This document shows, piece after piece, positions 5,645 through 23,321 of a DNA stretch of 64,000 nucleotides; the stretch's first letter is position 1, and the number at the start of each line of letters is the position of its first letter. Position numbers and translations under genes: made by a program. The DNA comes from Alphaproteobacteria bacterium (GTDB lineage: Bacteria; Pseudomonadota; Alphaproteobacteria; UBA7887). Under the pieces are notes generated by a model that was not told the origin of the DNA, did not search any database, and was given only the letters and a program-made list of their open reading frames with translations. The stretch spans positions 4,736,001 through 4,800,000 of the forward strand of contig CBDCGL010000011.1 in assembly GCA_965216755.1 (NCBI GenBank), in the 5' to 3' direction.

Positions 5645-6883
5645 ATGTTTATCCCTTTTATGCCGCCGACGTTGGCGCAACGTGCCGCAATGGTCGAAGC
5701 ACTTTTGGCGCCACCGGCGCCGATGCTGCCAATGATCACGCCGGATTCGCCGATTGGCCGACCGGCGCAACCGGCAGTTCCGTTTGGGGCACCGTTCGGT
5801 GCCTTCGCGCCAATCGGTCCGGGCACGCCACCAGTATCCGAGAACGCGCACCGGCCGGGACCGTCAGCATTTGCCGGGCCATTATTTGGCGTGCCAATAC
5901 CGACGCCACCGCTGCCTCCGGTCATTCCGTCGCGGCAGGCCATGGTGGAGGCGCTTTTACCCGGGGCCGTCGTGAGCAGCTTCGAAGGCACGCCGACGGC
6001 GCCCGGTGCGCGGGTCGCCCCGGCTTCGCCGCCAAACTCGATGCAGCGCGCCATGGTGGAGGCGCTGTCACCGGATGTCGCCAAGTTCTTTGGATTTTCG
6101 CCGAACGGAGGCCCTGATGGCCCGGGCGCAACGCATCGAACGCCGACGAACCCACGGTTCCTTCCCAATCTCATTCTTGCCTCAGTCGGCCGCGATGAGC
6201 CACCGCCACCACAGAGTGTGGATGTGTTCAGTGATTTGCTTAAGCAAGGTGAGCCGGAGAGGTTATGGCGGGAGCCGTCAAATCCGACGCAACGAGAAAT
6301 CGGAGAGTTCATACTTTCGATCGCCCCGGGGGTCGGCGAGGTGATGTCGGCGATGGAAGCATATGACGCCTATAAAACTGCTTATGCGGCTTTGCAAGAC
6401 GGTGATACCCAGCGCGCTTTGGTTGCGGCGGCAAAGGGCACAACGGCATTGTTTTCGGTCATTCCCGTTTTCGGCCGCACTGTCAAGCTCTCGAAACTGG
6501 GTGTGATCCTCGCGCTGCGGCTCTTCGACCACGCTGACTACAAAGGTCCACAAATCAAGGAGGGGGAGGCGGGTGGCGAAAGTGCGAGCAGAAATTTCCC
6601 AAAAAAGGAAAAAGAGGCGACTAAGGTTCGCGACATTACAAGCACATGCGTATTTTGTCGGCAAGCGGGCGTCGGGGTCCAAGTGGATCATGCCCACCCA
6701 AAAGCGCGCGGCGGCAACGCAACGGAAGCGAACGCACAATTGGCCTGCGCCCATTGCAATCCGTCTAAGCGCGATCGAGACGTGCCTGTCAATCCCCCAC
6801 CCGGATGGCAAGGTGATTGGCCACCATACTGGATTGCAAAATGGCCGGAACTGCGGGGTATAGGTTTGCGGGTCCCGAGGTAA
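5645..6883 (+). CDS. Polymorphic toxin-like protein: Pro-rich N-terminus, pre-toxin TG-like hinge, C-terminal HNH nuclease
   Basis: CVFC...VDH..PK.RGG......N.QLAC.HCN.SK HNH; LSIAPGVGE hinge; followed by DUF4265-like genes. Confidence 0.8.
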   Translation: MFIPFMPPTLAQRAAMVEALLAPPAPMLPMITPDSPIGRPAQPAVPFGAPFGAFAPIGPGTPPVSENAHRPGPSAFAGPLFGVPIPTPPLPPVIPSRQAMVEALLPGAVVSSFEGTPTAPGARVAPASPPNSMQRAMVEALSPDVAKFFGFSPNGGPDGPGATHRTPTNPRFLPNLILASVGRDEPPPPQSVDVFSDLLKQGEPERLWREPSNPTQREIGEFILSIAPGVGEVMSAMEAYDAYKTAYAALQDGDTQRALVAAAKGTTALFSVIPVFGRTVKLSKLGVILALRLFDHADYKGPQIKEGEAGGESASRNFPKKEKEATKVRDITSTCVFCRQAGVGVQVDHAHPKARGGNATEANAQLACAHCNPSKRDRDVPVNPPPGWQGDWPPYWIAKWPELRGIGLRVPR

Positions 6884-7117
6884 AATGGAACGGTGCGTCG
6901 TGAGGGTTCGGCACACTGAGGAGAAAATAATTTCTGTGCTGGGTCCTATCTCAATCCATCATTTCAGTTGTTGAGATCGCGCAAGGATTGAATTACTTTG
7001 ATGACAATTCAATCGCTGTCGCGTAGATGTAAATTCAACTGTATCTCGCGAATCAATGATGCGAATAGAATATTTGAGCAAAGAATCCTGTAGAGGATAA
7101 ACAAAAAGGAAATCCGT

Positions 7118-7600
7118 GTGGGAAAATACAAAATATTCGAGCATTCTCTGCCACTGTGGGAAGACAAAGGCACGACCGTCGTCCTCGCTTACGTAACTGA
7201 TGATGAGGACAAGAATGAGTGGGAAGCCCTTTGGGCGCGTCAGATTAGAAAAGATCACTATGAAATTTGCTGTATACCATTCTTTGCCTATAAAATTGCC
7301 TTAGGCGATATTGTCCGGACCAATTCGAGACGGGCCGTGGTGGGCGTCGCTGAGCCTTCTGGTCGGTCCGTGTTTCGGGTCTACTTTAAGCCGGAATTTG
7401 ATGCAAGCACGCGAGAAGCGCGCATTCGAGATGTATTGAACGGTATCGCGGACTTAGGTGGCGAAATGGAATTCTACCATGAGGATCTTCTCGGTATTGA
7501 CGCGAAGAACAAGGATATCGCTAACAAAGTCGTTGAGTTCCTGAAGGAATGGGAAGGTAACACAGAGTTATTATTATACGAGCACGGCAAATATCCATGA
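7118..7600 (+). CDS. DUF4265-like putative immunity protein, copy 1
   Basis: E.LWA......YEI.CIPFFAY.IALGDIV....PSGRS.FRV; lower GC. Confidence 0.75.
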   Translation: MGKYKIFEHSLPLWEDKGTTVVLAYVTDDEDKNEWEALWARQIRKDHYEICCIPFFAYKIALGDIVRTNSRRAVVGVAEPSGRSVFRVYFKPEFDASTREARIRDVLNGIADLGGEMEFYHEDLLGIDAKNKDIANKVVEFLKEWEGNTELLLYEHGKYP

Positions 7601-7870
7601 ATATCAACATCGTGGTCGGGGCCCGATTTCAGCGACTGTTAACCTAATGCATCATACTTCGCAGACTATGTTTTAAAATCACAATTTGTGCGTTTGGTAA
7701 TGTGTCACCGTAATCCAAAGTTTCGCACGTCGAGAAAAGGTGTTTCTGGAGCGGGTCAGGGCGCGGTCTTGCGAACGCCGGGTGTTTGATGCGGTTTACG
7801 TCGACATAGGGCGATAGCGGCACGGTGTTTTTGCAAGAAATCCTGTGGGCATCCAACAAGAGGTTCCCGC

Positions 7871-8353
7871 GTGAAAAAATACAAAATATTTAAGCATTCC
7901 CTGCCATTGTGGCATGACAAAGTCGATTCCTTCATCATGGCTGACGTAACTGATGATGAGGACGAAGATCAGTGGGAGAAGATCTGGACACGTCGCGTTG
8001 AGAAGGAGCGCTATGAAATCTGCTGCATACCATTCTTCACCTATAAAATTGCCTTGGGCGACATCGTCCGTGCAGATTGGATGGGGGCTTTCAGATGGGT
8101 TGTCGAGCCCTCCGGTCGGTCCGTGTTTCGGGTCTATTTTGAGCCGGAATTCGATCCAAGCACGCGAGAAGCGCGCATTCGAGATGTTTTGAACGGTATC
8201 GCTGACTTAGGTGGCGAAATGGAATTCTACAATGAGGACCTCCTCGCTATTGACGCAAAGAACAAGGATATCGCTGACAAAGTCATAGAGTTTCTGAAGG
8301 AATGGGAAGATAATACCGAACTGCTGGAGTATGAGCACGGCAAGTATCCTTGA
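7871..8353 (+). CDS. DUF4265-like putative immunity protein, copy 2
   Basis: Same length and motifs as 7118-7600; ~750-bp tandem duplication including flanks. Confidence 0.75.
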   Translation: MKKYKIFKHSLPLWHDKVDSFIMADVTDDEDEDQWEKIWTRRVEKERYEICCIPFFTYKIALGDIVRADWMGAFRWVVEPSGRSVFRVYFEPEFDPSTREARIRDVLNGIADLGGEMEFYNEDLLAIDAKNKDIADKVIEFLKEWEDNTELLEYEHGKYP

Positions 8354-8524
8354 ATATCAACATCCTGGTCGCGGTCAAATTACGGTGACAGTTTACTAAA
8401 TGCATCGTACTTTGGAGACTTTGTTTCATGCTGACAGTTTGTGCATTTAGTAAACTGTCACCGAAATACCGAAACGCCGAAATGGCGCAGACTTCACAGT
8501 GTGGAGCGCATACAAAAAAATAGC

Positions 8525-8553
8525 TAGACACATAATACACAATTTGCTATAGT
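8525..8553 (+). promoter_or_regulatory. Late promoter 2
   Basis: TAGACA-17 bp-TATAGT preceded by AAATAGC, as in late promoter 1. Confidence 0.6.
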
Positions 8554-8579
8554 GCGAATGTTAAGTGGGGAGACGTATC

Positions 8580-8615
8580 GCCTCGGCGCCGAATTGGTGT
8601 CGGGGCTTTTTGTTT
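8580..8615 (+). terminator. Intrinsic terminator just downstream of late promoter 2
   Basis: GCCTCGGCGCC-GAATT-GGTGTCGGGGC-TTTTTGTTT. Confidence 0.7.
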
Positions 8616-8774
8616 GCCGGCGCTAGGAGCCGTCGCACAACGCGGCGGACATCGTTTCAGGGCCGGCAGCCAAATAGGCGAGCCAATCCCCAGGAAAAGG
8701 CGTGGATTGGCGGGATAATGGATCGCGGAGGCGGGGCCAGGATCCGACGAGAGGTGGCGGCGACAGCGGGGGGT

Positions 8775-9116
8775 ATGGAGCATAATGGCGTGAACCAAAA
8801 TGACGATGGCGAGCAGGGGTTGCGAGACATTGTACGGCGTCACGTTCATGTGGCGGTACGCGCGCTGGTGGCTATTTGCGAAGATGAAAACGTACAAGCA
8901 AGCACCCGAGTGGCGGCGGCGAATGCCGTGTTGGATCGGGCTTATGGTCGGCCGCCACAGGCGGTTGAGGTCCATGGCCACAGGGATGTTGCGGACCTAA
9001 GTGATGGAGAGCTTGCGGCAATCATTCAATCCGAAAGCCATCGCGGCGGCGCGCGAACTGTTGGCAAGGCGGCGGGCAAGAAACGCGTTCGCCGCGTTCG
9101 TCGCTCGCGTGACTGA
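8775..9116 (+). CDS. Putative terminase small subunit
   Basis: RVAAANAVLDRAYGRP and DLSD.EL motifs; overlaps start of large terminase; start uncertain. Confidence 0.6.
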   Translation: MEHNGVNQNDDGEQGLRDIVRRHVHVAVRALVAICEDENVQASTRVAAANAVLDRAYGRPPQAVEVHGHRDVADLSDGELAAIIQSESHRGGARTVGKAAGKKRVRRVRRSRD

Positions 9117-10548
9117 TTTGAAGCCGGCCCGGCACCACAAACGGTTGATCGCGGCTCTGAACGAGATTGCCGATGGGAAACTTCGGCGGTTGATGGTGTT
9201 TATGCCGCCGGGCCATGCGAAGAGCACTTACGCAAGCGTTCTGTTTCCGCCGTGGCACTTGATCCGGCATCCGCAGGCGGCGGTTTTAGCGGCCAGTCAC
9301 AGTCAGGAACTGGCGGACAGTTTTGGGCGGCGCGCGCGCGCGGTTGTCGGGCATGAAGGTTTCGCCGGTGTGTCAGGGACAAAACTGGCCAACGACAATC
9401 GTGCCGCGTCACGATGGCAGACCGATAGCGGCGGCGTCTATTTCGGCATTGGTGTCGGCGGGGCGATCACGGGACGGCGCGCGGATTTGGCGATCATCGA
9501 TGATCCGATCAAGGGACGCGCCGAAGCGGACAGCGCGCTGGTCCGCGACCGGACCTGGGAGTGGTATCGCGCGGACCTGCGGACGCGCCTGAAACCGGGT
9601 GGTGCGCTCGTCCTGATTCAAACGCGATGGCACGAAGACGATCTGGCAGGCCGGATTCTTCCGCAGGAATATAGTGGGGAATCCGGCAGTGTGGTGGCGC
9701 GTGACGGCGAAACTTGGCAGGTCATTAGCCTACCGGCTCTCGCGGAACAGGACGATCCGCTGGGGCGCGCCCCTGGCGAGGCCCTGTGGCCGGAATGGTT
9801 CGATGCTGCGACACTGGAACAAGAAAGGGTCAGCCAAGGGCCGCGCAATTGGTCGGCACTGTACCAGCAACGTCCCGCACCGGAAGAGGGCGATTACTTT
9901 CGTAGCGAGTGGTTGCAGTGGTACCAAGAGCCACCAACGCATTTGGCGATTTATGGCGCCAGCGACTATGCGGTCACGGCCGGTGGTGGCGATTATACCG
10001 TGCACGGCGTCATTGGGGTTGATGCGCTGGATAATCTCTATGTGTTGGATTGGTGGCGCGCTCAAACAGACAGCTTGGTTTGGGTTGAGACCTTGTGCGA
10101 CTTGATTCGGAAATGGCGCCCGATTGAGTGGGTGGAAGAAAAAGGCCCGATCGCAAAAGGGCTGGGCGCGTTGATCGACAAGCGGCAGCACGAACGTGCC
10201 GCATATTGTGTACGCCATGGGTTCGCCTCGTCGGCGGATAAGCCAACCCGGGCCCAGGCTATTCGCGGCCGCATGGCCCAAGGAAAGGTTCATTTCCCCA
10301 GAAAGGCGCCGTGGGTGGCCGACTTGGTGAACGAGTTGATGACGTTTCCGGTTGGCGTTCACGATGATCAAGTCGACGTGATGAGCCTTTTCGGGGTGAT
10401 GCTGTCGCGTATGCACAAGGGCAAGAAGATGCGACGTCCGTCTGACCAAAACATGCAGCGACAACCGACTGTCAGCGAAATATTTGATGAGCATTTTCGG
10501 TCAACCGCGCGGCCGCGGGGCCGGGATCGGCTGGACAGCTGGTCATGA
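9001..10548 (+). CDS. Terminase large subunit
   Basis: MPPGHAKST Walker A, IIDDPIK Walker B, QTRWHEDDL, ALYQQRP, HDDQVD nuclease motif. Confidence 0.95.
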   Translation: MMESLRQSFNPKAIAAARELLARRRARNAFAAFVARVTDLKPARHHKRLIAALNEIADGKLRRLMVFMPPGHAKSTYASVLFPPWHLIRHPQAAVLAASHSQELADSFGRRARAVVGHEGFAGVSGTKLANDNRAASRWQTDSGGVYFGIGVGGAITGRRADLAIIDDPIKGRAEADSALVRDRTWEWYRADLRTRLKPGGALVLIQTRWHEDDLAGRILPQEYSGESGSVVARDGETWQVISLPALAEQDDPLGRAPGEALWPEWFDAATLEQERVSQGPRNWSALYQQRPAPEEGDYFRSEWLQWYQEPPTHLAIYGASDYAVTAGGGDYTVHGVIGVDALDNLYVLDWWRAQTDSLVWVETLCDLIRKWRPIEWVEEKGPIAKGLGALIDKRQHERAAYCVRHGFASSADKPTRAQAIRGRMAQGKVHFPRKAPWVADLVNELMTFPVGVHDDQVDVMSLFGVMLSRMHKGKKMRRPSDQNMQRQPTVSEIFDEHFRSTARPRGRDRLDSWS

Positions 10549-10580
10549 GCCGGGCGCACCATCGGCAATAGGATAGGGCA

Positions 10581-12506
10581 ATGACAGGTGATTCAGAGAG
10601 CGCACGCGACTTTTCGTCGGAGGTGCTGCGGTGGAAGCGCGAACTGGAATTGGCGGATCGCGAAGAAAAAGCCTGGCGTGAGCTGGCGCCGAAGATTATC
10701 CGCCGCTATCGCGATGAGCGCAACCGCGCCAGCCATGACCGGAAATTCAATATCTTCTGGTCCAATGTTGAAACCCTGAAACCGGCGGTCTACTCGCATA
10801 CACCCGTACCCGACGTTCGTCGTCGTTTTTTGGATCAGGATCCGATTGGGCGCGAGGCCGCCGAACTGTTGGAGCGCGCGTTGAGCTTCGCCATAGACGA
10901 CTACGATTTCGACGGCGCGATGGAATTGGTGCGGGACGACATGTTGCTGGGTGGCCGGGGCGTCGCGCGCGTGCGCTACGACGCCGATATCGCGCGCCGG
11001 CCCATGGAGATTTCTAGCGAGGAGCAGGGCGCCGCGCACGAAGCTGACGCGCGCGCCATACCAGCGCCGAACGACGCCGCGGATGGTGAAGATGAGAACG
11101 GTCCCTTCGTGGAAGTGGTGACCGATGAGTCCGTGCGTTGCGAATATGTCTATTGGGAACATTTCCGTATGTCACCGGCCCGGACCTGGGCGGATGTACG
11201 GTGGGTCGCCTTTAAGCATTTCATGACCCGTGATCAGTTGCGTCAGATGTGGCCCGACCGCGGATCGAAAGTGCCACTGCACGCGACGACTGATCCGTCT
11301 GACGCGCATGAGTCGCGTGGCGTCGAAAAAGAACCGGACACACCGTTTCGCCGCGCGATCGTGTGGGAGATTTGGGATAAGACCAGCCGCCGGGTGAAGT
11401 GGTGGGCGGAACAAACACCCTGGTTGCTGGAAGACACGCCACCACCACTGGACTTGGTGGCGTTCTTTCCGGTGCCACAGCCGGTCTATGCGGTGCGCAC
11501 CAGCGACAGCATGACGCCTGTGCCGGAGTTCATGATCTACCAAGATCAGGCGGATGAACTGGATCGGTTGACCAGCCGCATTAATCGATTGATCGAATCG
11601 GCAAAAGTGGCCGGAATCTATTCGGCGCGCCAAGAAGAAACCATACGAGCGTTGGCGCACGCGGACGATCTTGACCTCGTGCCGGCGCAAGATTGGTTGG
11701 CGCTGGCCGATCAAGGTGGTGTTTCACGAGCGATCGAATGGTTGCCATTGGATCAGATTGCGACGGTGCTCTCCGGCCTGTATCGCCAGCGCGAGCAGCT
11801 GCGTCAAGAGATCTTCGAACTGACCGGGATCTCTGACTTGTTCCGCGGGTCGAGTCGGCCCGGTGACACTGCGACGGCGCAAAGAATTAAAGGCGATTTC
11901 GGCAGCATGCGTTTGTCACCACGCCAAAAACCGATGGCCCGTTTCGTGCGCGACATTGTCCGGATCAAGGCCGAGATCATTGCTGATCAATTTGCGCCCG
12001 AAACCTTGTCACGCATGACCGGGCGGGTTGTCACCGAGGACATTTTGGCGGTGCTGCGGGATGATCGCCTGCGTCGATTTCGAATTGACATCGAGACAGA
12101 TTCGACCGTGCAGCCGGACGCGGAACGAGAAAGGCAAAACGCAGCAGCGTTCTTGTCGGCAATGACCAGCTATTTGCAGGCCGCAGGGCAGATCGCCAAT
12201 CAAGCCCCGGCGACCGTGCCGATGTTGATGGAGTTACTAAAATTCGGCGTACGTAGTTTCAAAACGGCGCGCGCTGTGGAAGATGTGATCGACGAAACCG
12301 CCGAGGTGTTGAAACAGCAATCGGCGGCGCAAGCTTTGTCTGAAGCGACGCCGCCGGGCGCGATTCAGGAAACCGATTTTGGCGGCCTCGACGCCGCATC
12401 GTTGCTGTCCGCTGTGTCCGCAGCCAATCCACTTGCTGCGCCAGACGACGCACTTGGGACCGCGCGCGCCCCATCCCTCAATGTTGATCACACGGAGCAG
12501 AGATGA
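10581..12506 (+). CDS. Portal protein (podovirus type)
   Basis: 641 aa after TerL; FNIFWSNVETL.PA.Y...P, ITG.SD..RG-like, FRIDIETDST motifs. Confidence 0.85.
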   Translation: MTGDSESARDFSSEVLRWKRELELADREEKAWRELAPKIIRRYRDERNRASHDRKFNIFWSNVETLKPAVYSHTPVPDVRRRFLDQDPIGREAAELLERALSFAIDDYDFDGAMELVRDDMLLGGRGVARVRYDADIARRPMEISSEEQGAAHEADARAIPAPNDAADGEDENGPFVEVVTDESVRCEYVYWEHFRMSPARTWADVRWVAFKHFMTRDQLRQMWPDRGSKVPLHATTDPSDAHESRGVEKEPDTPFRRAIVWEIWDKTSRRVKWWAEQTPWLLEDTPPPLDLVAFFPVPQPVYAVRTSDSMTPVPEFMIYQDQADELDRLTSRINRLIESAKVAGIYSARQEETIRALAHADDLDLVPAQDWLALADQGGVSRAIEWLPLDQIATVLSGLYRQREQLRQEIFELTGISDLFRGSSRPGDTATAQRIKGDFGSMRLSPRQKPMARFVRDIVRIKAEIIADQFAPETLSRMTGRVVTEDILAVLRDDRLRRFRIDIETDSTVQPDAERERQNAAAFLSAMTSYLQAAGQIANQAPATVPMLMELLKFGVRSFKTARAVEDVIDETAEVLKQQSAAQALSEATPPGAIQETDFGGLDAASLLSAVSAANPLAAPDDALGTARAPSLNVDHTEQR

Positions 12507-13573: not shown

Positions 13574-13594
13574 GAAAAATGAGGTAAGAAAAAT

Positions 13595-14569
13595 ATGGCT
13601 CCACCGAATTCGCAATGGGGCGAAGTCGCGACGACGACGCTGCACAAAAGGCGTCGGCGCATGGCAGACAACGTTCTTAACCACAATGCGTTGCTGCGAC
13701 GACTCAAAGAACGTGGCAATGTTGAGCCAGCCGATGGTGGCGAAAGCCTGATCGAAGAGCTCGAATATGCCGAGAACCAGACCTTTATGTACTATTCGGG
13801 CTACGAGGTTCTGGATATCAGCCCGTCTGAGGTTTTCTCGGCCGCGGAGTTCGATTGGAAACAGGCTGCGGTGGTCGTGACGATTTCGGGCGCCGAGCAG
13901 CGCAAGAACTCAGGCGACTCGCAGATGGTCCGGCTGCTTCGGCGTCGGCTTTCCAACGCCGAGAAGACCATGATGAACAATGTCAGTGTCGGCGTCTATT
14001 CGGATGGCACCGGATCTGGCGGCAAGCAGATTGGTGGCTTGCAGTTGTTGGTGGCCGACGACCCGACAACGGGCACTGTCGGTGGCATTGATCGCGCCGC
14101 AAATACGTTCTGGCGGAATGTCAGTTTCGATGCCACCACCGACGGCGGTGCAGCTGCCAGTGCCACCAACATCCAGTCATATATGAACGACGTTTGGATC
14201 CAGTTGGTTCGGGGAACGGATCGTCCCGACATTATCGTTGCGGACCCCAACTATTTCAACTTCTTCTGGGAAAGCCTGCAGGCGATCCAGAGGATTACGA
14301 CACCGCGCAACGGCGATGCCGGGTTCGAGTCATTGACGTTTCATGGGCCGGGCGGATCCGCGCCAGTGTTTCATGATAGTGATTGTCCAGGCAATCACAT
14401 GTATTTCCTCAACACGGAATACATTCACTGGCGCCCGCACAAGGATGCCAACATGACGCCGTTAGAGGCGCGGGAACCGGTCAATCAAGATGCGATTGTC
14501 CGGCCGATAATTTTCATGGGCAACATGACGCTGAGCAATGCTTCGTTGCAAGGCGTCTTGAAAGACTGA
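13595..14569 (+). CDS. Major capsid protein
   Basis: TTTL......ADNV...NALL..L, GG....E.LEY, YSGYE.L, AEFDWKQ motifs; strong RBS; position. Confidence 0.9.
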   Translation: MAPPNSQWGEVATTTLHKRRRRMADNVLNHNALLRRLKERGNVEPADGGESLIEELEYAENQTFMYYSGYEVLDISPSEVFSAAEFDWKQAAVVVTISGAEQRKNSGDSQMVRLLRRRLSNAEKTMMNNVSVGVYSDGTGSGGKQIGGLQLLVADDPTTGTVGGIDRAANTFWRNVSFDATTDGGAAASATNIQSYMNDVWIQLVRGTDRPDIIVADPNYFNFFWESLQAIQRITTPRNGDAGFESLTFHGPGGSAPVFHDSDCPGNHMYFLNTEYIHWRPHKDANMTPLEAREPVNQDAIVRPIIFMGNMTLSNASLQGVLKD

Positions 14570-15091: not shown

Positions 15092-15114
15092 TCACCAAGG
15101 CTCACGTGATATCG

Positions 15115-15143: not shown

Positions 15144-15187
15144 GCGGAATCGCGCAACACGCCATTGAAACAATGAGGTGCGATCGA

Positions 15188-15835
15188 ATGGATGTTTCAC
15201 AACAGGATTGGCTCACACTCGCCGAGTCGACCGGCGCGAGCCAAGCTGACGCCGACGGTGTCATGGCCACGTTCTATGACAGGCCCGTCGAAAACAGGGT
15301 CGCGTCGAAGAAAGAGGGACGCCCGATCTACGACTCGAAGACATATGTCATGATTTTGATTCCGGGACAAAGCAAAACGCGCCTGGATCGGCATGTCAAA
15401 CCTGACGATATCGACCGTTGGCCTGACGCCTGGGCGCGATACAGAAAGCGCGAACGTGGCATCGTCAACGGAACACCACTGCACGAATGGTCGTATCTCA
15501 GCGCGACCCGGCTGATGGAACTGAAGGCGCTCAGCATCCTGACTGTCGAGCAATTGGCTGCAGTGAACGACAGCGCACTCGGCAATTTAGGGCCGGATGC
15601 AGCCGATCTTGTCGACCGCGCGCGTCAACATATTCAGGGCGAGGATCAGACCATCAAGGAACTGCGGTCGCGCAACCAAGACCTTGAAGGGCAAGTCAAG
15701 GCCATGGAGGCGGAGATGGCCGAAATGAAACGCGCCATTGCGGCGGGCGAAGTCAAACCCAGCAAGTCCAAGACGCGTCGCCGCAGCAGTGGCGGGACTC
15801 AACAGGACGTGGAAACCAATGCTGGTTCAACTTAA
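15188..15835 (+). CDS. Conserved phage hypothetical protein
   Basis: FY.......S..EGRPI......I.IPG, GTPL.EW, TVEQLA; C-terminal coiled coil. Confidence 0.7.
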   Translation: MDVSQQDWLTLAESTGASQADADGVMATFYDRPVENRVASKKEGRPIYDSKTYVMILIPGQSKTRLDRHVKPDDIDRWPDAWARYRKRERGIVNGTPLHEWSYLSATRLMELKALSILTVEQLAAVNDSALGNLGPDAADLVDRARQHIQGEDQTIKELRSRNQDLEGQVKAMEAEMAEMKRAIAAGEVKPSKSKTRRRSSGGTQQDVETNAGST

Positions 15836-16043
15836 GCCGGTCCTTCTGCGTCCGGGCGAACGGGGGTTGGTTATGTTCCACAACAAGCATCTGCCACATC
15901 TCACCGACCAAGAACTTGACGCCGTGCGCGGGGAACTTCGCGAAATGGCACGCGACAACGATCATCCGTGCGCGTTGACCGCGCGCCGCCTGCTTGGCGG
16001 CGTCGAGGAAACTGTTCGCTTCAATGGGACGTGGGGACGATGA
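15819..16043 (+). CDS. Small hypothetical phage protein
   Basis: Fills the gap, overlapping both neighbours. Confidence 0.45.
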   Translation: MLVQLKPVLLRPGERGLVMFHNKHLPHLTDQELDAVRGELREMARDNDHPCALTARRLLGGVEETVRFNGTWGR

Positions 16044-16759
16044 GTTTACTCACAATATGTCGTCAGGCAATCGGCGAGATCGGTTCTGTCGAGACACCAG
16101 ACACGATCGTCGGCAACAGCAATGAGACGGCGAAGCAAATTCTTGCCCTGGCGCAACGGGAAGGCCAGGAATTGGCGCGCCGGCACACGTGGTCCGCGCT
16201 GCAACGAGAGCACGTCTTCGCGACCACGTCGGGCGTGGAAAGTTACGCGCTGCCGTCCGATTGGCGACAGGCGATCGATGAAACAGCGTGGGACCGCACC
16301 AACAACCGTCCGATGCCGGGAAGTGTTGGCCCGCGCGCCTGGCAGGTTTGGAAATCCGGCTTGATCGCCACAGCGGATGTTTGGACTCAGTTTCGGGTGA
16401 AATGGGATTCGAGCGCGGGCGCGCGCCGCATTTTTGTCGATCCGGTGCCGAGTAGCGCGAAGACGTTGGTTGTCGAATACCTGTCCCAATCATGGTGTCA
16501 GTCGTCGTCAGGTACGTTGCAAGCCGGCTGGATCGCCGACAGCGACACGGCACTTCTTGACGAAGATCTCATACAGATGGGGCTGATCTGGCGCTTTCTG
16601 AAAGCGAAGGGGTTGCCCTATCAAGAGGAATTCAACAGCTACGAACGATCGGTAGATCGCGCGATCGAGGCCGACGTGCCGTCGCGGCGGATCCGGTTGG
16701 GCGGCCCGCGACGCGGTGAATTGCGAAACCCGAACCTGCCAGATACGGGGTATGGTTGA
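16040..16759 (+). CDS. Head-tail adaptor (T7 gp11 / P22 gp4-like)
   Basis: MSLLTI..., W..L......T..G...Y.LP.D, L..G..WRF..AKGL.Y. Confidence 0.75.
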   Translation: MSLLTICRQAIGEIGSVETPDTIVGNSNETAKQILALAQREGQELARRHTWSALQREHVFATTSGVESYALPSDWRQAIDETAWDRTNNRPMPGSVGPRAWQVWKSGLIATADVWTQFRVKWDSSAGARRIFVDPVPSSAKTLVVEYLSQSWCQSSSGTLQAGWIADSDTALLDEDLIQMGLIWRFLKAKGLPYQEEFNSYERSVDRAIEADVPSRRIRLGGPRRGELRNPNLPDTGYG

Positions 16760-18297
16760 TGGTTATGCAGCGCAATCCGTCGCGGCAACGGCAGGCGAAT
16801 GCGACACAGAGCTTGTCGTTTCCGGCGCCAATCGGGGGTTGGAATGCGCGCGACAGTCTGGATCAGATGAAAGAAACCGACGCGGTACGCCTGGAGAATT
16901 GGTTTCCCAATGGCGACCGGGTCAGCGTCCGGCAGGGATTTGCAGAACACGCAACCGGCGTTGGTGCCGGCGAAGTCGAGACCGTCATAGAGTTTGTCGG
17001 TTTGACCAGTCGCAAACTGATTGCCGCCAGCGGGACCAACCTCTACGACGCGACAGCGGCTGGTGCCGCATCGTCGCTGGCCGGGGGGTTTACGTCCGGG
17101 CGCTGGCAGGGCGCCAATTTCGGCAATCGCCTGATTTTGGTCAACGGTGCCGATGCGCCGCAATCATTCGATGGCACAACGATGGCTGCCGCTGGCTTTA
17201 CCGGCCCCACGACGGTGAGCGATCTGATTTACGCGGTGCCATTCAAGGGCCGACTGTATTTCGTCGAAAAGAATACGGGCGATGTTTGGTATGGCGGCAT
17301 TGGCGCGGTCACTGGCGCACTGACCAAGTTCCAATTGAGTCGAGTATTGCGCCGCGGCGGCGAACTGCAGGCGATCGGCGTGTGGTCGCGGGACGCGGGC
17401 GATGGGCTCGACGACTTCATCGTCTTCGTATCGTCGAATGGCGAGGTGTTGGTGTACGGCGGTACGGATCCGGCAACGGATTTCGCCAAAATCGGCAGCT
17501 ATGAAATCGGACGGCCGCTGGGACGACGATGCATGGCGCGCGCCGGTGGCGAACTAATCATTTTGACGCGGGCCGGCTATTTGCCCGTGTCGCTGTTGCT
17601 TCAGGGTGGCACCGCCGACACAATCGACCGTCACCCGGTTTGGGGAAAAGTGCGACCGGCCGCCGCAGACGCGACGGCGATGTTCGAGGCGAATTTCGGT
17701 TGGCAGATTTTTTCCTGCCCGACCGGATGCGCGCTTCACGTCAACATACCGAGCCTGGTGGGCAGCGAGTACAAACAGCATGTGTTGAATACGGTCACGG
17801 GCGCGTGGGCATTGTATTCCGGAGTTCCGGCGCGCGCGTTCGGTGCCTTTGACGGCGACACCTATTTCGGCGGCGGTGATGGGCGCGTCTTCAAGATTGG
17901 TGGCAACACTGACGACGGCGCCGCCATTCGCTTTCGTGCCAAGCAAGCCTTTAGCTATTTGCGAAAACGAACCAGCATCAAGAGATTCACCATGAGCCGC
18001 CCCGTCATTCGCACCGACGGGACCGTGTTGGCGACGGTCGGGTTGGATGTGGATTTCGCCGACCGGAACCTGCCGCAGAACTTGACCAGTTTCGCATCCG
18101 GCGTGGCTGGGTCGGCGTGGGATACCGACGATTGGGATGTCGGTGTCTGGGCGGGGGCCGCCACGCCCGCGTCGACATGGCTATCGACGCCAGCGGTGGG
18201 GCGCAGCGCATCCGTGCGTTTCGAAGGCGAGGCCAACGCGCAGACGCTCGATTGGTACTCCACCGACGTGCTGGCGCAAACGGGTGGCGTTCGGTGA
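16756..18297 (+). CDS. Tail nozzle / packaged-DNA stabilisation protein (P22 gp10 / T7 gp12-like)
   Basis: PAP.GGWNARD, L.N.FP, beta-propeller-like repeats, WD...WD...W near C-terminus. Confidence 0.75.
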   Translation: MMVMQRNPSRQRQANATQSLSFPAPIGGWNARDSLDQMKETDAVRLENWFPNGDRVSVRQGFAEHATGVGAGEVETVIEFVGLTSRKLIAASGTNLYDATAAGAASSLAGGFTSGRWQGANFGNRLILVNGADAPQSFDGTTMAAAGFTGPTTVSDLIYAVPFKGRLYFVEKNTGDVWYGGIGAVTGALTKFQLSRVLRRGGELQAIGVWSRDAGDGLDDFIVFVSSNGEVLVYGGTDPATDFAKIGSYEIGRPLGRRCMARAGGELIILTRAGYLPVSLLLQGGTADTIDRHPVWGKVRPAAADATAMFEANFGWQIFSCPTGCALHVNIPSLVGSEYKQHVLNTVTGAWALYSGVPARAFGAFDGDTYFGGGDGRVFKIGGNTDDGAAIRFRAKQAFSYLRKRTSIKRFTMSRPVIRTDGTVLATVGLDVDFADRNLPQNLTSFASGVAGSAWDTDDWDVGVWAGAATPASTWLSTPAVGRSASVRFEGEANAQTLDWYSTDVLAQTGGVR

Positions 18298-18707
18298 ACT
18301 TGGTTGGCGACCTCACGGGCGGGCCGGTATGCCGGTGGATCGAAAGTCAATTGCACGTGGATCTTGGCGAATGCGCGGCCATCGGCGTGGTGCAAGACGA
18401 GGCACTCATTGCTGCGGTCGCGTTCAACAACTACCAGCCGCATATGATCGAGGCCAGCGTGGTTGCGACGACACCGCGCTGGTGCTCGCGGCGTGTTCTG
18501 GCGGCGGTGTTCGCGTATCCGTTTCGGCAATTGGGCGTGCGACGCGTGCAGGCAACGACAGCGCGGCGCAACAAACGGGCGCGGAAATTCATCGAACGAC
18601 TAGGGTTCAAATATGAGGGCATTGCCCGAAAGGGCTGGCCACGCGGTGGCGACGCCGCGGTCTATTCTATGTTGAACAACGAATGTAGGTGGCTAAGAGA
18701 TGGGTAA
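18294..18707 (+). CDS. GNAT acetyltransferase-like virion assembly protein
   Basis: F.YPF.QLG..RV......N.....F..RLGFK.EG..R; GTGA overlap with nozzle. Confidence 0.8.
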   Translation: MNLVGDLTGGPVCRWIESQLHVDLGECAAIGVVQDEALIAAVAFNNYQPHMIEASVVATTPRWCSRRVLAAVFAYPFRQLGVRRVQATTARRNKRARKFIERLGFKYEGIARKGWPRGGDAAVYSMLNNECRWLRDG

Positions 18708-19572
18708 GGGATCGACCAAGGCGCCACCGGCGCCAAATCCGGATGAATTGATCAAGGCGCAGACGATCGCCAATCAGCGCGCCTTGCGCGATGCGGCACG
18801 GTTCAACCAAGTGGCGGAAGTCACGCCGTTCGGATCGCGCCAGTTTGTTGGTGATATCGGGACCCCCGATCGCACCGCGGTGACCAGTTTGTCACCGTCG
18901 GGTCAACGCCAATTGGAAGCGCGGAACGCATTGGCGGAGGCCCTGTTGGGACTCGCCCAAAGTCGCGCCAGCCAGATTCCGGCGGCACCACTGGACTTTG
19001 CCGGATTGCCGGCGCGGCCCGGTGTCGGGGACTTTGGTGGTGAACGCGATCGATTGGAACAAGCGCAATTTCAGCGGGCGCGCAATTTGATTGATGGTGT
19101 GTTTGCGGACAACGCCGAACGATTGCGTGGCCAACTAACGGCGGCCGGGATTCCGGCGGAGTTTCAGCCCAGCAGAGCAGAAGTGCGCGACTTGAACCGG
19201 CGCCGCGATCAGGCGTTGAGCAATGCCGCGCTGTCGTCAGTTGCGGCGGGCGGGGCGGAGCAATCGCGCCTGTTCGGGTTGGCCGACGCGGCGCGCCGCC
19301 AGGCGATGACCGAAGCGTTGCTGGGGCGTAGCTTGCCCTTTCAAGAGTTGGCCGGATTTGCCGGAGCATTTCCGGTGCAAACGCCGGCATTTCAGCCACT
19401 GGCGCAGTCGGGCCCGTTGTCGATCAATCCATTGCCGGCTTTCCAGATGGACTTCCAGCGCGGTCAAGCAAACGCGCAAAGGGCCGCCAATGCCAACCTG
19501 GCGGGGTTGCAGGCACTCATGCAAGTGTTGGGTACCCCGACTCAGGGCGCGTTCGATCGGATACTGAGTTAG
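18700..19572 (+). CDS. DNA ejection (internal virion) protein
   Basis: MGK....APPAP.P start, NQV.TPFGS, T.LSP..Q; Ala/Gln-rich; position after GNAT. Confidence 0.65.
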   Translation: MGKGSTKAPPAPNPDELIKAQTIANQRALRDAARFNQVAEVTPFGSRQFVGDIGTPDRTAVTSLSPSGQRQLEARNALAEALLGLAQSRASQIPAAPLDFAGLPARPGVGDFGGERDRLEQAQFQRARNLIDGVFADNAERLRGQLTAAGIPAEFQPSRAEVRDLNRRRDQALSNAALSSVAAGGAEQSRLFGLADAARRQAMTEALLGRSLPFQELAGFAGAFPVQTPAFQPLAQSGPLSINPLPAFQMDFQRGQANAQRAANANLAGLQALMQVLGTPTQGAFDRILS

Positions 19573-19631
19573 TGTATCGCATGACCGGACATCATCTGAC
19601 AGACAGCAAAATGATCGTGCATTCGGTGCTG

Positions 19632-20222
19632 TCATTTATCCGAACGGGAAGCACTTTCGATCATGACGGCAGTCAGGAACAAAGCGTCGTCGAAACCGAC
19701 GTAGCGGTGCCTTGAGACCTTTGAGATACGGTAGCAAATGGTATGTCGTAGCAAGGGACCAAAGAAGACGCTGTCATATGTGAATGCGAGGACGAAGGCG
19801 CAGTGGGCGCGTTCGAACGGTTCGCGCGTTTCGACCGGCAGGTCGTCGGCGATCTGACGCAGCTTTCGCCATTCCGGAAAACGATCTTCCCATTTGTCGG
19901 TTGGGATTTTCTTGGCGTGTTTTGGGCGCGCTGGAACAGCGGTCGCGGCCTTTGCCTGAAGACGACCCGTCAAGAGTAATTTGATAAGCGGCCAGAGACT
20001 TGTCGTTTCGTGGCGCACGAGAACCTTTAATCTAGAGCACGCCGAATGCGCTGGGGTGCGGAAATGAGGTCCGTCGTTCAAGCTTCCCTCAGCGCGAAGA
20101 AGGTCGTGCGTCAACTCAGATATGGTTTCCATATCGCACCACCGCGCGCGCATCCACATGCCGGCCAAAACAAGAACAAGGCTAAGGCAAAGTAATGAGA
20201 CAGAAGCAATCACCATTCCCAC
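19632..20222 (-). CDS. Membrane-anchored hypothetical protein, family A copy 1
   Basis: N-terminal TM; WRKLRQIADDLP..EPFERAHCAF..GPLLRHTICYRISK.SRHRYVGFDDALFL shared with copies 2 and 3. Confidence 0.7.
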   Translation of the reverse strand: MGMVIASVSLLCLSLVLVLAGMWMRARWCDMETISELTHDLLRAEGSLNDGPHFRTPAHSACSRLKVLVRHETTSLWPLIKLLLTGRLQAKAATAVPARPKHAKKIPTDKWEDRFPEWRKLRQIADDLPVETREPFERAHCAFVLAFTYDSVFFGPLLRHTICYRISKVSRHRYVGFDDALFLTAVMIESASRSDK

Positions 20223-20233
20223 GTCTCCGGCAA

Positions 20234-20503
20234 CTATGCTTCGTTGGTATTGGTATTGCTGGCACTTGCGCTCAGCAATGCTTGACTTTCTCGTTTCTGT
20301 CCTCTTTTCCGTATGACCGCCGCATATCGCCGTTCCCAGGCGCAGGCTGCGTCATCGACGACGATCGTAAAACGCCACATCTCCTTAATGAACCGGGTGA
20401 GCGCAGCGACAAAAAGCACGATTGAGACGACTAAGAAGAGATAGCTGGAATAGAAGGCTTGCAACCAATGTACGACGAACATCCAAGATTGTTCGAAAAA
20501 CAT
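20234..20503 (-). CDS. Single-TM small protein, family B copy 1
   Basis: HWLQAFYSSYLFLVVSI TM segment, basic tail, RBS AGGTG. Confidence 0.6.
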   Translation of the reverse strand: MFFEQSWMFVVHWLQAFYSSYLFLVVSIVLFVAALTRFIKEMWRFTIVVDDAACAWERRYAAVIRKRGQKRESQALLSASASNTNTNEA

Positions 20504-20689
20504 TCTTTCACCTAAGGCACACGTGAAGTTATCGGAGGCACCTAAGAGAATACGCTCCCAACGTACCCGAAAAAACGACTGGTGCATAGGCCCTCGGGAT
20601 GCCGGGGCGCCCCTGTCGGCGCAATGGTAACTTCTCGCATGGCGGCACATAGCCAGACACAGGATAAAATGATCCACCATTCGGTGCTG

Positions 20690-21274
20690 TCATTTATCCG
20701 AACGGGAAACACTTTCGATTATGATGGCCGTGAGGAACAAGGCGTCGTCGAAACCGACGTAGCGATGTCTAGAGACCTTTGAGATGCGGTAGCAAATGGT
20801 ATGTCGTAGCAAGGGACCGAGGAGAACGCTGTCGTAGGTTAGTGCGAGGAGGAAGGCGCAATGGGCGCGTTCGAACGGTTCGCGAATATCGTCGGAAAGG
20901 TCGTCGGCGATTTGACGCAGCTTCCGCCACTCCGGAAAACGATCTTCCCATTTGTCGGTGGGGATTTTCTTGGCGTGTTTTGGGCGCGCCGGAACAGCGG
21001 TCGCGGCCTTTGCCCGAAGACGACCCGTCAGGAGTAATTTGATAAGCGGCCAGAGACTCGTCGTCTCATAGGATACGAGAAACGTCAATTTAAAGCACGC
21101 CGTTTCCGCTGGGCTACCGAAATGAGGTCCGTCAATCAAGTTCCCCTCGGCACGAAACACGTCATGTTGCAACTCGGATTGGAATCCGAAATCGCGCGAC
21201 TTTGCGTGCGCCCACATGCCCGCCAGAATAAGAAAGAGGCTAAGGTAGAGTAATGATAGTGAGGCAATCACCAT
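20690..21274 (-). CDS. Membrane-anchored hypothetical protein, family A copy 2
   Basis: Tandem duplicate (~1.06-kb unit) of 19632-20222. Confidence 0.7.
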   Translation of the reverse strand: MVIASLSLLYLSLFLILAGMWAHAKSRDFGFQSELQHDVFRAEGNLIDGPHFGSPAETACFKLTFLVSYETTSLWPLIKLLLTGRLRAKAATAVPARPKHAKKIPTDKWEDRFPEWRKLRQIADDLSDDIREPFERAHCAFLLALTYDSVLLGPLLRHTICYRISKVSRHRYVGFDDALFLTAIIIESVSRSDK

Positions 21275-21333
21275 CGCCCGGTCTCCGATCGATGAGGCAT
21301 GTTTGTGCTGCCGGATGCGCTTGTTCGACCAGC

Positions 21334-21555
21334 TTAGAATTCACGTTTCTGACGCCCCTTCCGCAGGATCGCGTCGTCTCGTCGCTCGCAGGCGCAAACC
21401 GCCTGTTCTAGAGAAAATACGAGACGTCGGATTTTCTTGATGAATTGGGTCAGTGCCGAGACAAAAAGCAAGATTGAGACGACTAAGAAGAGATAGCTGG
21501 AATAGAAGGCGTGCAACCAATGTACGACGATCATCCAAGCTTGTTCGAAAAGCAT
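21334..21555 (-). CDS. Single-TM small protein, family B copy 2
   Basis: HWLHAFYSSYLFLVVSI; RBS AGGAG. Confidence 0.6.
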   Translation of the reverse strand: MLFEQAWMIVVHWLHAFYSSYLFLVVSILLFVSALTQFIKKIRRLVFSLEQAVCACERRDDAILRKGRQKREF

Positions 21556-21698
21556 TTGTTCTCCTAATTTTCCCGTGAAGTTATCGGGGGCACCTAAGAG
21601 AATACGCTCCCAACATACCCGAAAAAACGACTGATGCATAGGCCCTCGGTGTGCCGAGATGCCGCTATGCGTGTGGGCAAAAAGACGGAATCGCAACA

Positions 21699-23321
21699 AT
21701 GTTTCCTATCGCACGTCGACCCCTTGGCCGAATTGACGACCAATGGGATAGGTATCGCCAGGTGGTTAACGCTCTTGGCCCAAGTCGACTTGGGCAAACA
21801 GGTTTACCCGCGCAACCGAGTTTCCCCACCGAATTGCCGACACCGCCGGTGTTTGAGCCTTGGTTGGAAATGCTGGCGGTATTACCCGATTATTCGAACC
21901 CCGCGGTGCGCCGCGCCGCGGTCGAGGTGTTGATGGGTGCCGCACCCGCACAGGTTCCATCTCGTGAACCCGTTCGCCCGCCAATAATACCACCGCTTGG
22001 GGTCCCGGGCGTGCCGTTCGTCGATCCCCTCGGATTGGATCGTCAGCACATGGTGCCAGACAAAAAACTATTCGGGTTGCCGGTGCCACAACCGAAATTC
22101 AGCCGCGAACCGGTTCCCCCATCTCACCCAATCGGGACCCTTTCCGCGCCTCGCCAAGCGGGTTTGAGGACCGCGGCGCAAATGGGCACCGTGACCTCAG
22201 CATTTGGAGATCCACGCCAGACGCAACCGGACTTCTCACCACTGCATCGAGTCGCCGCCGTTTTTGCCGACGGCGAAGGGCGCGAGGCGGACAGCACTGG
22301 CCCGAACGAGCTCAGCAATGATGCGCTGACGCGGCTTGACGCGATTGAGTCAGCGGTGGCCGCGTTTGAAGCGGTCGCCCACACAGGTTTGATCGACGAG
22401 GGCGGCGCGGCGCTGATTGGCGCCGAACCACCGGCGGACGTGGTGCAGGCAGTGGGTGAGCTTGTTCTCTCCCTGCTGCCGGGCACCGGAGAGCTGTTGT
22501 CTGCCCGTGATGCCTATCAGGCGTTCCTAGCCGCTGATGCGGCACTCGACAATGACGAAGTTTTCGAGGCAATACAAAAGATTGCCGAGGGTACGTTCCA
22601 CACCCTTGGTGCAATGCCGGTCGTTGGCGTGGGTGTGCGGCTCACGCGCACAGCCGCCAAAGGCGCAATGCATCTGCAAAATAAGCTCAACGTGCGGCGG
22701 TGGATGCGACGGCGCCTTGTCGACAAACACGCGGTCATAACGCGCCATAGCAACGACGAAAAGTTTACCGAATGGGTGAAGGCTGTGCGCAGTGGTAAGG
22801 TCAATAAGACCCGATCGGTAGTGTGGGTCGCAAGCATCGACGACGATGTCGAGTTTGCAATCAGGACCGCCCTGAGGACCAAATTGCCCCTTGGCGGTAT
22901 CTTGATGTCCGACCGGGAAATCGGCCATATCTTCCGAGATGCCAAACGCGCAATGGTCGAGCCCGAGATCATCGAGAACTTGCGACGCCATATGCGTGAA
23001 CCGGCGATGATTTTGTTGGAAAGAAATCCGAAGTCTATTGGAAACACGTCTAAAGAAAACACGGTGCTGTTTGTTTTGGATTTGGGGAAGAATGATAACG
23101 CCGACGCGCTAGTCAAAGTCGCCGTGAAAGTTGATTTCGAGCTCAAGAAATTCGGCCTGGACCCGAGGACAGCCACGACACAGAGCAAGGCTGACGCCAC
23201 TGAAAAACGACGAGTCCGCACAATTTTGACGCCCTTTATCAGGACTGCGGGAACAGTGTCAGAAGCGCAACTCAACAACCCAAACAACTACATAAAAATC
23301 TACGAAAAGAAAAAGAAGTAA
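21699..23321 (+). CDS. Polymorphic toxin-like protein: Pro-rich N-terminus, pre-toxin TG-like hinge, C-terminal PBECR-like putative RNase
   Basis: LSLLPGTGELLSARDAY hinge homologous to 5645-6883; C-terminus (I.M.D..I.H..RD.K...P..IL....VLFV...KVAVKVD...IRTAG.V....L...Y) resembles domains at the end of MuF-type head proteins. Confidence 0.6.
   Translation: MFPIARRPLGRIDDQWDRYRQVVNALGPSRLGQTGLPAQPSFPTELPTPPVFEPWLEMLAVLPDYSNPAVRRAAVEVLMGAAPAQVPSREPVRPPIIPPLGVPGVPFVDPLGLDRQHMVPDKKLFGLPVPQPKFSREPVPPSHPIGTLSAPRQAGLRTAAQMGTVTSAFGDPRQTQPDFSPLHRVAAVFADGEGREADSTGPNELSNDALTRLDAIESAVAAFEAVAHTGLIDEGGAALIGAEPPADVVQAVGELVLSLLPGTGELLSARDAYQAFLAADAALDNDEVFEAIQKIAEGTFHTLGAMPVVGVGVRLTRTAAKGAMHLQNKLNVRRWMRRRLVDKHAVITRHSNDEKFTEWVKAVRSGKVNKTRSVVWVASIDDDVEFAIRTALRTKLPLGGILMSDREIGHIFRDAKRAMVEPEIIENLRRHMREPAMILLERNPKSIGNTSKENTVLFVLDLGKNDNADALVKVAVKVDFELKKFGLDPRTATTQSKADATEKRRVRTILTPFIRTAGTVSEAQLNNPNNYIKIYEKKKK

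Follow-up and report, generated by a model that had tools for sequence, protein, structure and literature searches.

The genes P0001 and P0002, which lie in a podophage-like island of an alphaproteobacterium, are predicted to encode modular phage-borne effectors with exchangeable nuclease tips. The island is located in a window of 64,000 nucleotides (the whole stretch of DNA analyzed here; Alphaproteobacteria bacterium, GTDB lineage UBA7887, assembly GCA_965216755.1, contig CBDCGL010000011.1, positions 4,736,001 to 4,800,000), and the coordinates given below refer to this window. We consider this reading of the sequences well supported, because it agrees with the architecture of the two proteins, with the shuffling of tips throughout their family, with the link of one tip to the head protein MuF and with the recurring phage context. 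P0001 and P0002 would be paralogous effectors of a podophage-derived island, each consisting of a proline-rich N-terminal region, a hinge of about 75–100 aa and an exchangeable C-terminal tip of the nuclease type. Both open reading frames (ORFs) were confirmed as they had been described in the initial annotation (Table 1). The start of both proteins with "MF" is correct if ATG 5645 and ATG 21699 are chosen, but the frames are also open upstream, at TTG 5603 and GTG 21651, and neither ATG is preceded by a clear Shine-Dalgarno sequence.

The hinge is the region that the two proteins share. BLASTP aligned residues 198–300 of P0001 with residues 231–333 of P0002 (32 of 103 positions identical, 31%, 47.4 bits, E 5e-10), and no other pair of segments was significant. 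Thus, the homology of the hinge was confirmed, but not its length of about 65 aa: the aligned stretch has 103 columns, and the part conserved in the family has about 75 aa. The two-sequence hinge profile was searched against 1.84 billion protein cluster representatives. This exhaustive search gave 80 hinge proteins at E ≤ 1e-3, including 27 at E ≤ 1e-10, which makes the family a rare one. They are 73–2037 aa long, the hinge lies anywhere from the N-terminus to about residue 1050, and it is typically followed by 120–270 residues. The consensus of the hinge is roughly E.LsllPG.GEvmSArDAY.AF.AA.eALe.GD...AL......laalGAIPglG..vRlgK. Among the 25 most frequent of the 31 Pfam families found in the 80 proteins were PBECR1 (five proteins), LPD23 (four), PG_binding_1 and Peptidase_C39 (three each), ART and ART-PolyVal (two each), whereas PT-TG and Phage_Mu_F were absent from these 25. 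ADPrib_exo_Tox, Cytotoxic, GIY-YIG, Endonuclea_NS_2, PI-PLC-X, LPD3 and HNH were found once each, and there was one LRR protein. Besides PBECR1, ART, GIY-YIG and peptidase C39, the tips include a colicin-E3-like kind. With nucleases, ARTs, a peptidase and a lipase-type domain among them, they are of the sort known from polymorphic toxins and polyvalent proteins. Clustering by BLAST divided 67 N-terminal parts into 39 clusters and 78 C-terminal parts into 36. One N-terminal cluster of 14 proteins bears seven different tip clusters, and the tip clusters C2, C4 and C6 each sit on more than one N-terminal cluster. Tips and N-termini are therefore shuffled around the hinge, which is the defining pattern of polymorphic toxins. 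This bears out the polymorphic-toxin architecture proposed in the initial annotation, with a constant hinge and swapped tips across the 80 proteins. The search that it had suggested for further C-terminal variants yielded the 36 tip clusters, so the tips are not invariant among homologues.

The initial annotation had suggested that the hinge is a PT-TG domain. This was not the case with the available model: the PF14449 HMM had no match (E ≤ 10) in the six-frame translation of the genome from which the window comes, and PT-TG passed its cut-off in none of 401 genomes of the class. In a sample of 400 other class genomes the hinge profile matched eight and PT-TG one, which was not among the eight. 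No Pfam model for the hinge exists among the matches. In a language-model look-up, unnamed viral clusters scored 0.93, and a PT-TG cluster came only at rank 6, with a score of 0.92 and few shared features. Since the PT-TG HMM misses the hinge and the look-up ranks PT-TG only sixth, we classify the hinge, by its sequence, as a pre-toxin-type domain without a Pfam model. It may be a distant relative of PT-TG. The PT-TG domain (PF14449; Zhang et al. 2012, PMC3482391) is likewise short, predicted to be helical and located directly before variable toxin tips, and the hinge resembles it in its small Pro/Gly motifs (PGxGE ... GAIPxxG); it differs in that the HMM does not recognize it. The first structure model, of hinge plus tip, had a pLDDT of 60, gave only helix-hairpin matches and was uninformative on the fold of the hinge; Foldseek found no match with it. 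In this low-confidence model the hinge is helical. The hinge profile found nothing below E 1 among the PDB sequences, and word-index searches, with the N-terminus plus hinge of P0002 and with its tip, returned only P0002 itself.

The tip of P0001 was identified directly. Residues 335–377 match the Pfam family HNH (PF01844) with 31.5 bits at a curated cut-off of 21.4, as the initial annotation had expected. Of the 21 PHROG families that P0001 matched, 19 bear the annotation HNH or endonuclease VII. The motif CxxC...DH...N...CxHCN, which we take to be the HNH catalytic set, is visible in the translation. By these matches the tip is a zinc-finger HNH domain, which makes it probably a DNase. Many phages encode an HNH endonuclease next to the terminase genes, where it assists the terminase in packaging cuts. 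P0001 could accordingly be such a packaging endonuclease and not a toxin: the terminase genes begin 1.7 kb beyond its end on the same strand, it matches generic phage HNH families in Pfam and PHROG and none specific to toxins, and small phage HNH genes were its only matches in 50,697 phage records. We consider this very improbable. Its HNH domain follows a hinge that in the other 78 proteins comes with tips of the toxin type, and two DUF4265 genes separate P0001 from the terminase genes. To our knowledge, a stretch of 300 aa made up of a proline-rich N-terminus and a hinge is not a feature of packaging HNH proteins.

The tip of P0002 could be approached only through its relatives. P0002 had no Pfam match (E ≤ 1), no PHROG match and no match in the 50,697 phage records, and neither P0002 nor its tip profile gave a match below E 1 among the PDB sequences. 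The HMMs PF18810 and PF18812 of the PBECR/MuF_C families had no match in the genome of the window at E ≤ 10 (PF18819 was not run on the genome). By hhalign, the P0002 tip aligned with a tip cluster of six hinge proteins over 162 columns (probability 94.9%, E 4e-8). The alignment of tips only has invariant F, W, D, R, K and G, besides some further invariant residues, and at one position three sequences, P0002 among them, have His whereas the other four have Arg. An alternation of His and Arg between PBECR families is described in the main text of PMC5512222. A search with the tip profile for longer proteins gave 11 matches, three of which have an N-terminal Phage_Mu_F domain, and the profile aligned with residues 273–437 of the MuF protein P0086 with a probability of 99.7% (E 4e-26). 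Pfam reported MuF_C, PBECR2 or PBECR3 in seven of ten tip relatives, all below the curated cut-offs, and nothing in three. For the tip of the relative P0004, matches were found in 31 phage records (26 Pseudomonas, three Ralstonia and two Stx-converting; best rows E 2e-6), within the C-terminal part of Mu-F-like head proteins; a metagenome scan with P0004 found no relative.

A model of the tip only, built from 15 sequences, had a pLDDT of 74.7 and a pTM of 0.71. It gave 13 matches at E ≤ 1e-3 in BFVD, with names such as MuF C-terminal domain protein, PolyVal ADP-ribosyltransferase, LPD protein, minor capsid protein and "nuclease". A PDB scan independent of Foldseek ranked the colicin D tRNase first (Z 4.8, rmsd 2.9 over 83 residues), and 23 of the first 25 rows were toxins of the colicin D, CdiA-CT, BrnT, RelE, HigB, ParE, YoeB and YafQ types. 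Z-scores as low as these prove nothing alone. Taken with the sequence links, the uniform list of toxins makes a divergent MuF_C/PBECR member, closest to the BECR fold (RelE/colicin D type), the best reading of the P0002 tip. Formal membership of P0002 in MuF_C/PBECR is not established because the family HMMs miss it. Thus, the "PBECR-like" tip of the initial annotation is backed by the relatives, through hhalign and sub-threshold Pfam matches, and by the modeled fold. With a BECR-like fold, the tip would probably be an RNase.

The N-termini are long and rich in proline, as had been noted: Pro makes up 22% of the residues before the hinge in P0001 and 15% in P0002, and the segments LFGVPIPTP (P0001) and LFGLPVPQP (P0002) are both present. 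Composition-corrected BLASTP between them was not significant (best E 1.9). Without the correction E was 3e-4 over 122 columns, a score inflated by the proline bias; we treat this similarity as weak because it is significant only without the correction. No Pfam family matched the N-termini, which are probably disordered. The idea of an N-terminal trafficking region was not borne out. Among the 80 hinge proteins this N-terminal part is confined to P0001 and P0002, and a conserved trafficking domain is therefore without support. In agreement with the initial annotation, Pfam found no MuF, Rhs, VgrG or signal-type domain in either protein; the scan also reported no secretion-system domain or signal peptide. 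The PF04233 (Phage_Mu_F) profile had no match at E ≤ 0.01 in five genomes including that of the window. One enzymatic domain was detected in P0001 and one in P0002. The N-termini have a GC content of 0.61–0.65, whereas it is lower in the tips (0.57 and 0.51) and lowest in the DUF4265 genes (0.47), a trend to be expected of imported tip/immunity cassettes.

In the six frames of the window the motif R..A(M/L).EALL occurs five times, three times in P0001 (5678–6070) and twice in the 290-aa virion protein (18928–19323). It could be an assembly motif, or chance. A similar motif is seen in the first 35 residues of the protein encoded after the virion gene in a sister contig (C3, see below) and in the phage ppBjS10J-1 (locus L019, 27851–27950). 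Descent of the N-termini from the proteins in this place in related phages was considered and is unproven; only the short motif R..A(L/M)..ALL is in common. Within the 400-nt gap before P0001, at 5470–5572, there are four to five iteron-like repeats of CCTAAGTTT, followed by a GC-rich hairpin and a T-run, and a promoter-like TTGACA...TAGTAT lies upstream of P0001 at about 5243–5270. These repeats, the hairpin and the promoter-like site could be a regulator or a packaging site.

We also assessed the genomic context of the hinge elsewhere, with the profile searched in 22 other genomes of the family or order and in the 400 other genomes sampled from the class. None of the 22 and eight of the 400 had a match. 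In genome G149 the neighbours of a hinge gene are, by PHROG, a terminase of phrog_38 (E 3e-88) and the N-terminus of a T7-type fibre (E 7e-21). The hinge recurs there in an ORF of 759 aa located between this terminase and the 307-aa hinge protein. Genome G095 has two hinge ORFs on the same strand about 6 and 15 kb downstream of a phrog_38 terminase (span 6–17 kb), with open frames of 1089 and 1125 aa. These proteins match the size expected of internal virion proteins. The contig L030 of a metagenome-assembled genome has a pair of hinge ORFs, with tips like that of P0002, next to two fibre N-termini of the T7 type. Further hinge proteins near podophage-type genes, for which the initial annotation had proposed a search, were thus found in three other elements (G095, G149 and L030). 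An 80-sequence hinge profile applied to eight loci detected two hinge ORFs in each of the window, G095, G149 and L030, and one in L031 and in each of three loci of the genus g108.

The island itself occupies about 27 kb between host metabolic genes. It is flanked by a carboxyltransferase gene (1614–3188) and, from about 30.5 kb, by enoyl-CoA-hydratase-like and AMP-ligase genes, the former named from its translation only, without a family search. The recognized genes are structural and lysis genes (Table 1). The portal protein has relatives in Myxococcus Mx8, in the two rhizobial phages Bradyrhizobium ppBjS10J-1 and Rhizobium RHph_I3_18 and in the Brucella podophages, and the gene order from the portal to the virion protein is conserved with these two rhizobial phages. 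The GC content is 0.59–0.63 in the terminase, portal, tail B and virion genes and 0.56 in the head gene. Family scans recognized no integrase, repressor or replication genes in the island. No tRNA gene lies in the island or at its edges (the only one of the window is at 44.5 kb), and no attachment-site repeats were found in a search that did not include a direct comparison of the two island ends. A scan of 18500–30500 for promoters and terminators was no better than with shuffled sequence.

Table 1. Features of the podophage-like island (coordinates in the window)
Feature	Coordinates	Strand	Description
DUF6362 / HTH protein	4802..5236	+	left end of the island
P0001	5645..6883	+	412 aa; Pro-rich N-terminus 5645-6235, hinge 6236-6550, HNH tip 6551-6883 (HNH motif about 6647-6775)
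DUF4265 gene a	7118..7600	+	Pfam PF14085, E 1.1e-21; GC 0.47; paralogue of gene b
DUF4265 gene b	7871..8353	+	Pfam PF14085, E 1.2e-21; tandem paralogue of gene a
Possible small-terminase ORF	8565-9116		candidate
Large terminase	9001..10548	+	phrog_38 type
Portal protein	10581..12506	+	
Scaffold-sized ORF			between the portal and major head genes
Major head protein	13595..14569	+	
Two tail genes	15968..18297	+	phrog_6013 and phrog_5107; syntenic with podophages ppBjS10J-1 and RHph_I3_18
GNAT acetyltransferase and virion structural protein	18117..19572	+	virion protein 290 aa, phrog_6121
Two-gene membrane-protein cassette, two tandem copies	19632..21699	-	between the virion gene and P0002
P0002	21699..23321	+	540 aa; Pro-rich N-terminus 21699-22388, hinge 22389-22703, MuF_C/PBECR-like tip about 22716-23321
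Small membrane protein	23594..23944	+	after P0002; paralogue at 26629-27018
Tail-fibre-like protein	23972..25177	+	401 aa; copy of the C-terminus at 27185-27402
Two-gene membrane-protein cassette, third copy	25301-26337	-	
Lysozyme/transglycosylase-like protein	27931..28587	+	218 aa; C-terminal membrane helix

Podophages encode internal or ejection proteins, such as gp14–16 of T7 and gp7, gp16 and gp20 of P22. The initial annotation had placed P0002 in the slot of these proteins, after the GNAT gene and a first ejection gene. The order is right, with the 290-aa virion protein in the place of the first ejection protein, but four minus-strand genes (19632–21699) intervene. P0001 is not in this slot; it lies between the DUF6362 and small-terminase genes. 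A comparison was provided by a sister element in the same genome, on contig C3 (24.5 kb, loci L022 and L023), which reaches both contig ends. Its proteins are identical to those of the island at 71% (portal), 88% (head protein), 80% (tail B) and 64% (virion protein). The sister has a different large terminase and a 1050-aa tailspike-looking ORF between terminase and portal. Scanning with the hinge profile detected no hinge protein in it or in the two rhizobial phages. In the sister, DUF6362 is followed directly by the small-terminase gene, so P0001 and the two DUF4265 genes, absent at this place, form an inserted block. The virion-protein gene of the sister is followed by a gene for a 418-aa protein, and in the sister and two related phages the gene right after the virion-protein homologue encodes a protein of 417–659 aa. 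Like podophage ejection proteins, P0002 is encoded downstream of the tail genes and a small virion protein, and there are two or more hinge proteins per element. Sequence similarity to them was not detected, however, and a large (>1000 aa) internal protein is missing from the island, as had been noted. The claim of an ejection slot is thus one of position, since P0002 shares no detectable similarity with the slot proteins and 2.1 kb of inserted genes lie between it and the virion gene.

The 218-aa lysozyme-like protein had its best PHROG match in the middle of the 1277-position phrog_873 profile, which is filed under head and packaging; weaker matches were to a tape-measure family and to a tail-injection-transglycosylase family. 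It may be a remnant or a short form of the lysozyme domain of an ejection protein. Each minus-strand cassette encodes a protein of about 195 aa with an N-terminal membrane helix and then a membrane protein of about 120–150 aa (GC 0.49–0.55); these proteins have no Pfam or PHROG match. Located on the opposite strand in the late-gene region, the cassettes may be superinfection-exclusion or immunity genes. The segment 25180–27402 partly repeats the stretch between the end of the virion gene and that of the fibre gene. It holds 51 nt of copied virion-gene 3' end (at 25228–25278), the third cassette, the membrane-protein paralogue and a copy of the fibre C-terminus that is 95% identical, and it contains no copy of P0002. 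Near the right edge of the island, at 29880–30132, there is an inverted repeat of 32 nt whose arms are 97% complementary and 189 nt apart.

The neighbouring genes were also considered as immunity genes. By its position, DUF4265 gene a is a candidate immunity gene for the HNH tip. The two DUF4265 genes come right after P0001 and are low in GC, which fits a cassette of a tip plus immunity. A complex of the HNH tip with the product of gene a was predicted with a score of 0.30 at a mark of 0.34, a value that counts neither for nor against binding. DUF4265 was rejected as an established immunity family, given its genomic contexts (0 of 4, see below) and a literature in which one unrelated paper mentions it. 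Near P0002, candidates are limited to the small membrane protein and the repeated minus-strand cassettes, and nothing links them to P0002.

In the proposed mechanism P0001 and P0002 would be produced alongside the virion proteins. The particle would carry them, and together with the DNA they would enter the cytoplasm of the target cell, where the tip would cut nucleic acid. Carriers of the island would be protected by neighbouring genes, for P0001 most likely by the two DUF4265 genes. By analogy with MuF toxins and polyvalent proteins, we lean towards loading of both proteins into the virion and their injection with the DNA, with only a little more confidence than doubt.

A number of results weigh against the phage-borne, virion-loaded reading. 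In the genus g108 the hinge gene is more than 100 kb from the only phrog_38 terminase in two of three genomes, and the third has no such terminase; in one g108 genome, five neighbouring ORFs were scanned without a match to a phage structural family. Searches with P0001, P0002, P0004, P0026 and the two G095 proteins found no hinge protein in the 50,697 phage records, and a strict DNA pattern of the hinge found none in IMG/VR. No virion-targeting domain was recognized, and for the N-termini of P0001 and P0002 there is no match elsewhere among the 80 hinge proteins. P0002 shows no detectable similarity to the proteins that follow the virion gene in the sister and in related phages. The Z-scores of its tip model to solved BECR toxins are low (4.8 at most), and Foldseek of this model against the PDB was empty. 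DUF4265 is present in four of the 400 other class genomes, and an evident toxin gene upstream was seen in none of the four (judged by eye). There is also no obvious cytoplasmic immunity gene downstream of P0002. Finally, the island may make no particles, because it has no recognizable integrase or replication genes and no tRNA gene.

Some of these results would be explained if P0001 and P0002 were ordinary toxin/immunity cargo ("morons") of a decaying prophage, released by lysis or by an unknown export route and not loaded into particles. The block of P0001 and two DUF4265 genes is inserted relative to the sister element, the tips and neighbouring genes are lower in GC than the rest of the island, integrase and replication genes are not recognized, the g108 hinge genes are not near a phrog_38 terminase, and the N-termini lack a known virion domain. 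We still regard such cargo as unlikely, since Pfam reported no signal peptide or secretion-system domain, in each of four independent elements a pair of hinge genes accompanies a terminase or tail fibre, and the tip family of P0002 is elsewhere fused to the head protein MuF. It is also possible, with very low probability in our estimate, that the island is a domesticated podophage-like particle, that is, a headed device similar to a gene transfer agent or a bacteriocin, which the host fires at competitors. This reading starts from an island that has structural and lysis genes only, with no integrase or replication module detected. If it is right, the hinge proteins would stand in for the ejection proteins that the island lacks and would bring in interchangeable nuclease tips; the hinge would then be the hallmark of a route of cargo loading into capsids that is independent of MuF.

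We infer toxicity and immunity, and likewise the role of P0001 and P0002, be it the killing of competitors or host takeover. As injected takeover or anti-defence factors the proteins would not be interbacterial weapons, and their neighbours would not be immunity genes. This role is consistent with the presence in the family of LPD23, LPD3, ART-PolyVal and PBECR1, which in the main text of PMC5512222 are signature domains of polyvalent proteins, with the lack of an evident immunity gene for P0002 and with the absence of a toxin link of DUF4265 elsewhere (0/4). It appears doubtful, because P0001 and P0002 have a single enzymatic domain each and not several, because extensive tip swapping and tandem low-GC downstream genes form a toxin/immunity pattern, and because the island, lacking replication genes, has no infection cycle that the proteins could support. 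This estimate concerns the role and not the delivery, and it overlaps with loading into the virion.

Phage-encoded polymorphic toxins and injected polyvalent proteins are already known. In the available text of PMC5576092, PMC12226406 and PMC11699363, the phage-borne polymorphic toxins are all anchored by a MuF head protein. Our literature search on polymorphic toxins with ejection proteins, and on PT-TG with prophages, returned no description beyond MuF proteins and staphylococcal phages. A description of the hinge was not found in the main text of PMC5512222; its supplementary domain list, and the supplementary tables of PMC5576092, may hold it. It appears not to have been described that the conserved part is a hinge lacking a Pfam model, that MuF is absent and that such proteins occur in pairs in alphaproteobacterial podophage-type elements. 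If this reading is correct, a second family, built on the hinge, exists in podophage-type elements, and phages have more than one route to arm their particles with swappable toxins. The hinge family would extend the idea of phage toxins to alphaproteobacterial elements, and the hinge would be a short searchable marker for new toxin tips and immunity genes. Should the N-terminus or the hinge prove to act as a signal for capsid loading or ejection, foreign proteins could be packaged into phage particles by means of it.

The closest known systems are the MuF toxins and the polyvalent proteins, both of which have been proposed to be packaged in the phage head and injected (Jamet et al. 2017, PMC5576092; Iyer et al. 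2017, PMC5512222). According to the available text of PMC5576092, MuF toxins come mainly from Firmicutes prophages; MuF relatives are Apk2 (PMC12226406) and Bxa (PMC11699363), in Bacteroidales and Pasteurellaceae. Like MuF toxins, the hinge proteins are encoded in a phage or prophage in or beside the packaging module: P0001 ends 1.7 kb upstream of TerS/TerL, and the hinge genes of G149 come directly after TerL. Both groups combine a conserved N-terminal or central part with swappable C-terminal toxin tips. In MuF toxins small downstream genes, sometimes two, act as immunity genes, and the two DUF4265 genes of the island would be candidate counterparts. The tip family of P0002 is itself found on MuF proteins. 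Unlike in MuF toxins, the MuF domain is present neither in P0001 and P0002 nor anywhere in the genome, the constant module is a short hinge without a Pfam model instead of a head-morphogenesis domain, and the carrier is a podophage-like island of an alphaproteobacterium. With polyvalent proteins the hinge family shares PBECR1, LPD23, LPD3 and ART-PolyVal, and the best viral structural matches of the P0002 tip are PolyVal, LPD and MuF_C proteins; the packaging into the virion and injection with the DNA, proposed for polyvalent proteins in PMC5512222, would also be common to both. In contrast to the 2–15 domains of polyvalent proteins given in the main text of PMC5512222, P0001 and P0002 have one enzymatic domain each, and the hub domains MPTase, ArdC-N and SWI2/SNF2 were not detected. 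Placed beside these systems, P0001 and P0002 are a MuF-less form of phage-linked polymorphic toxins and polyvalent proteins.

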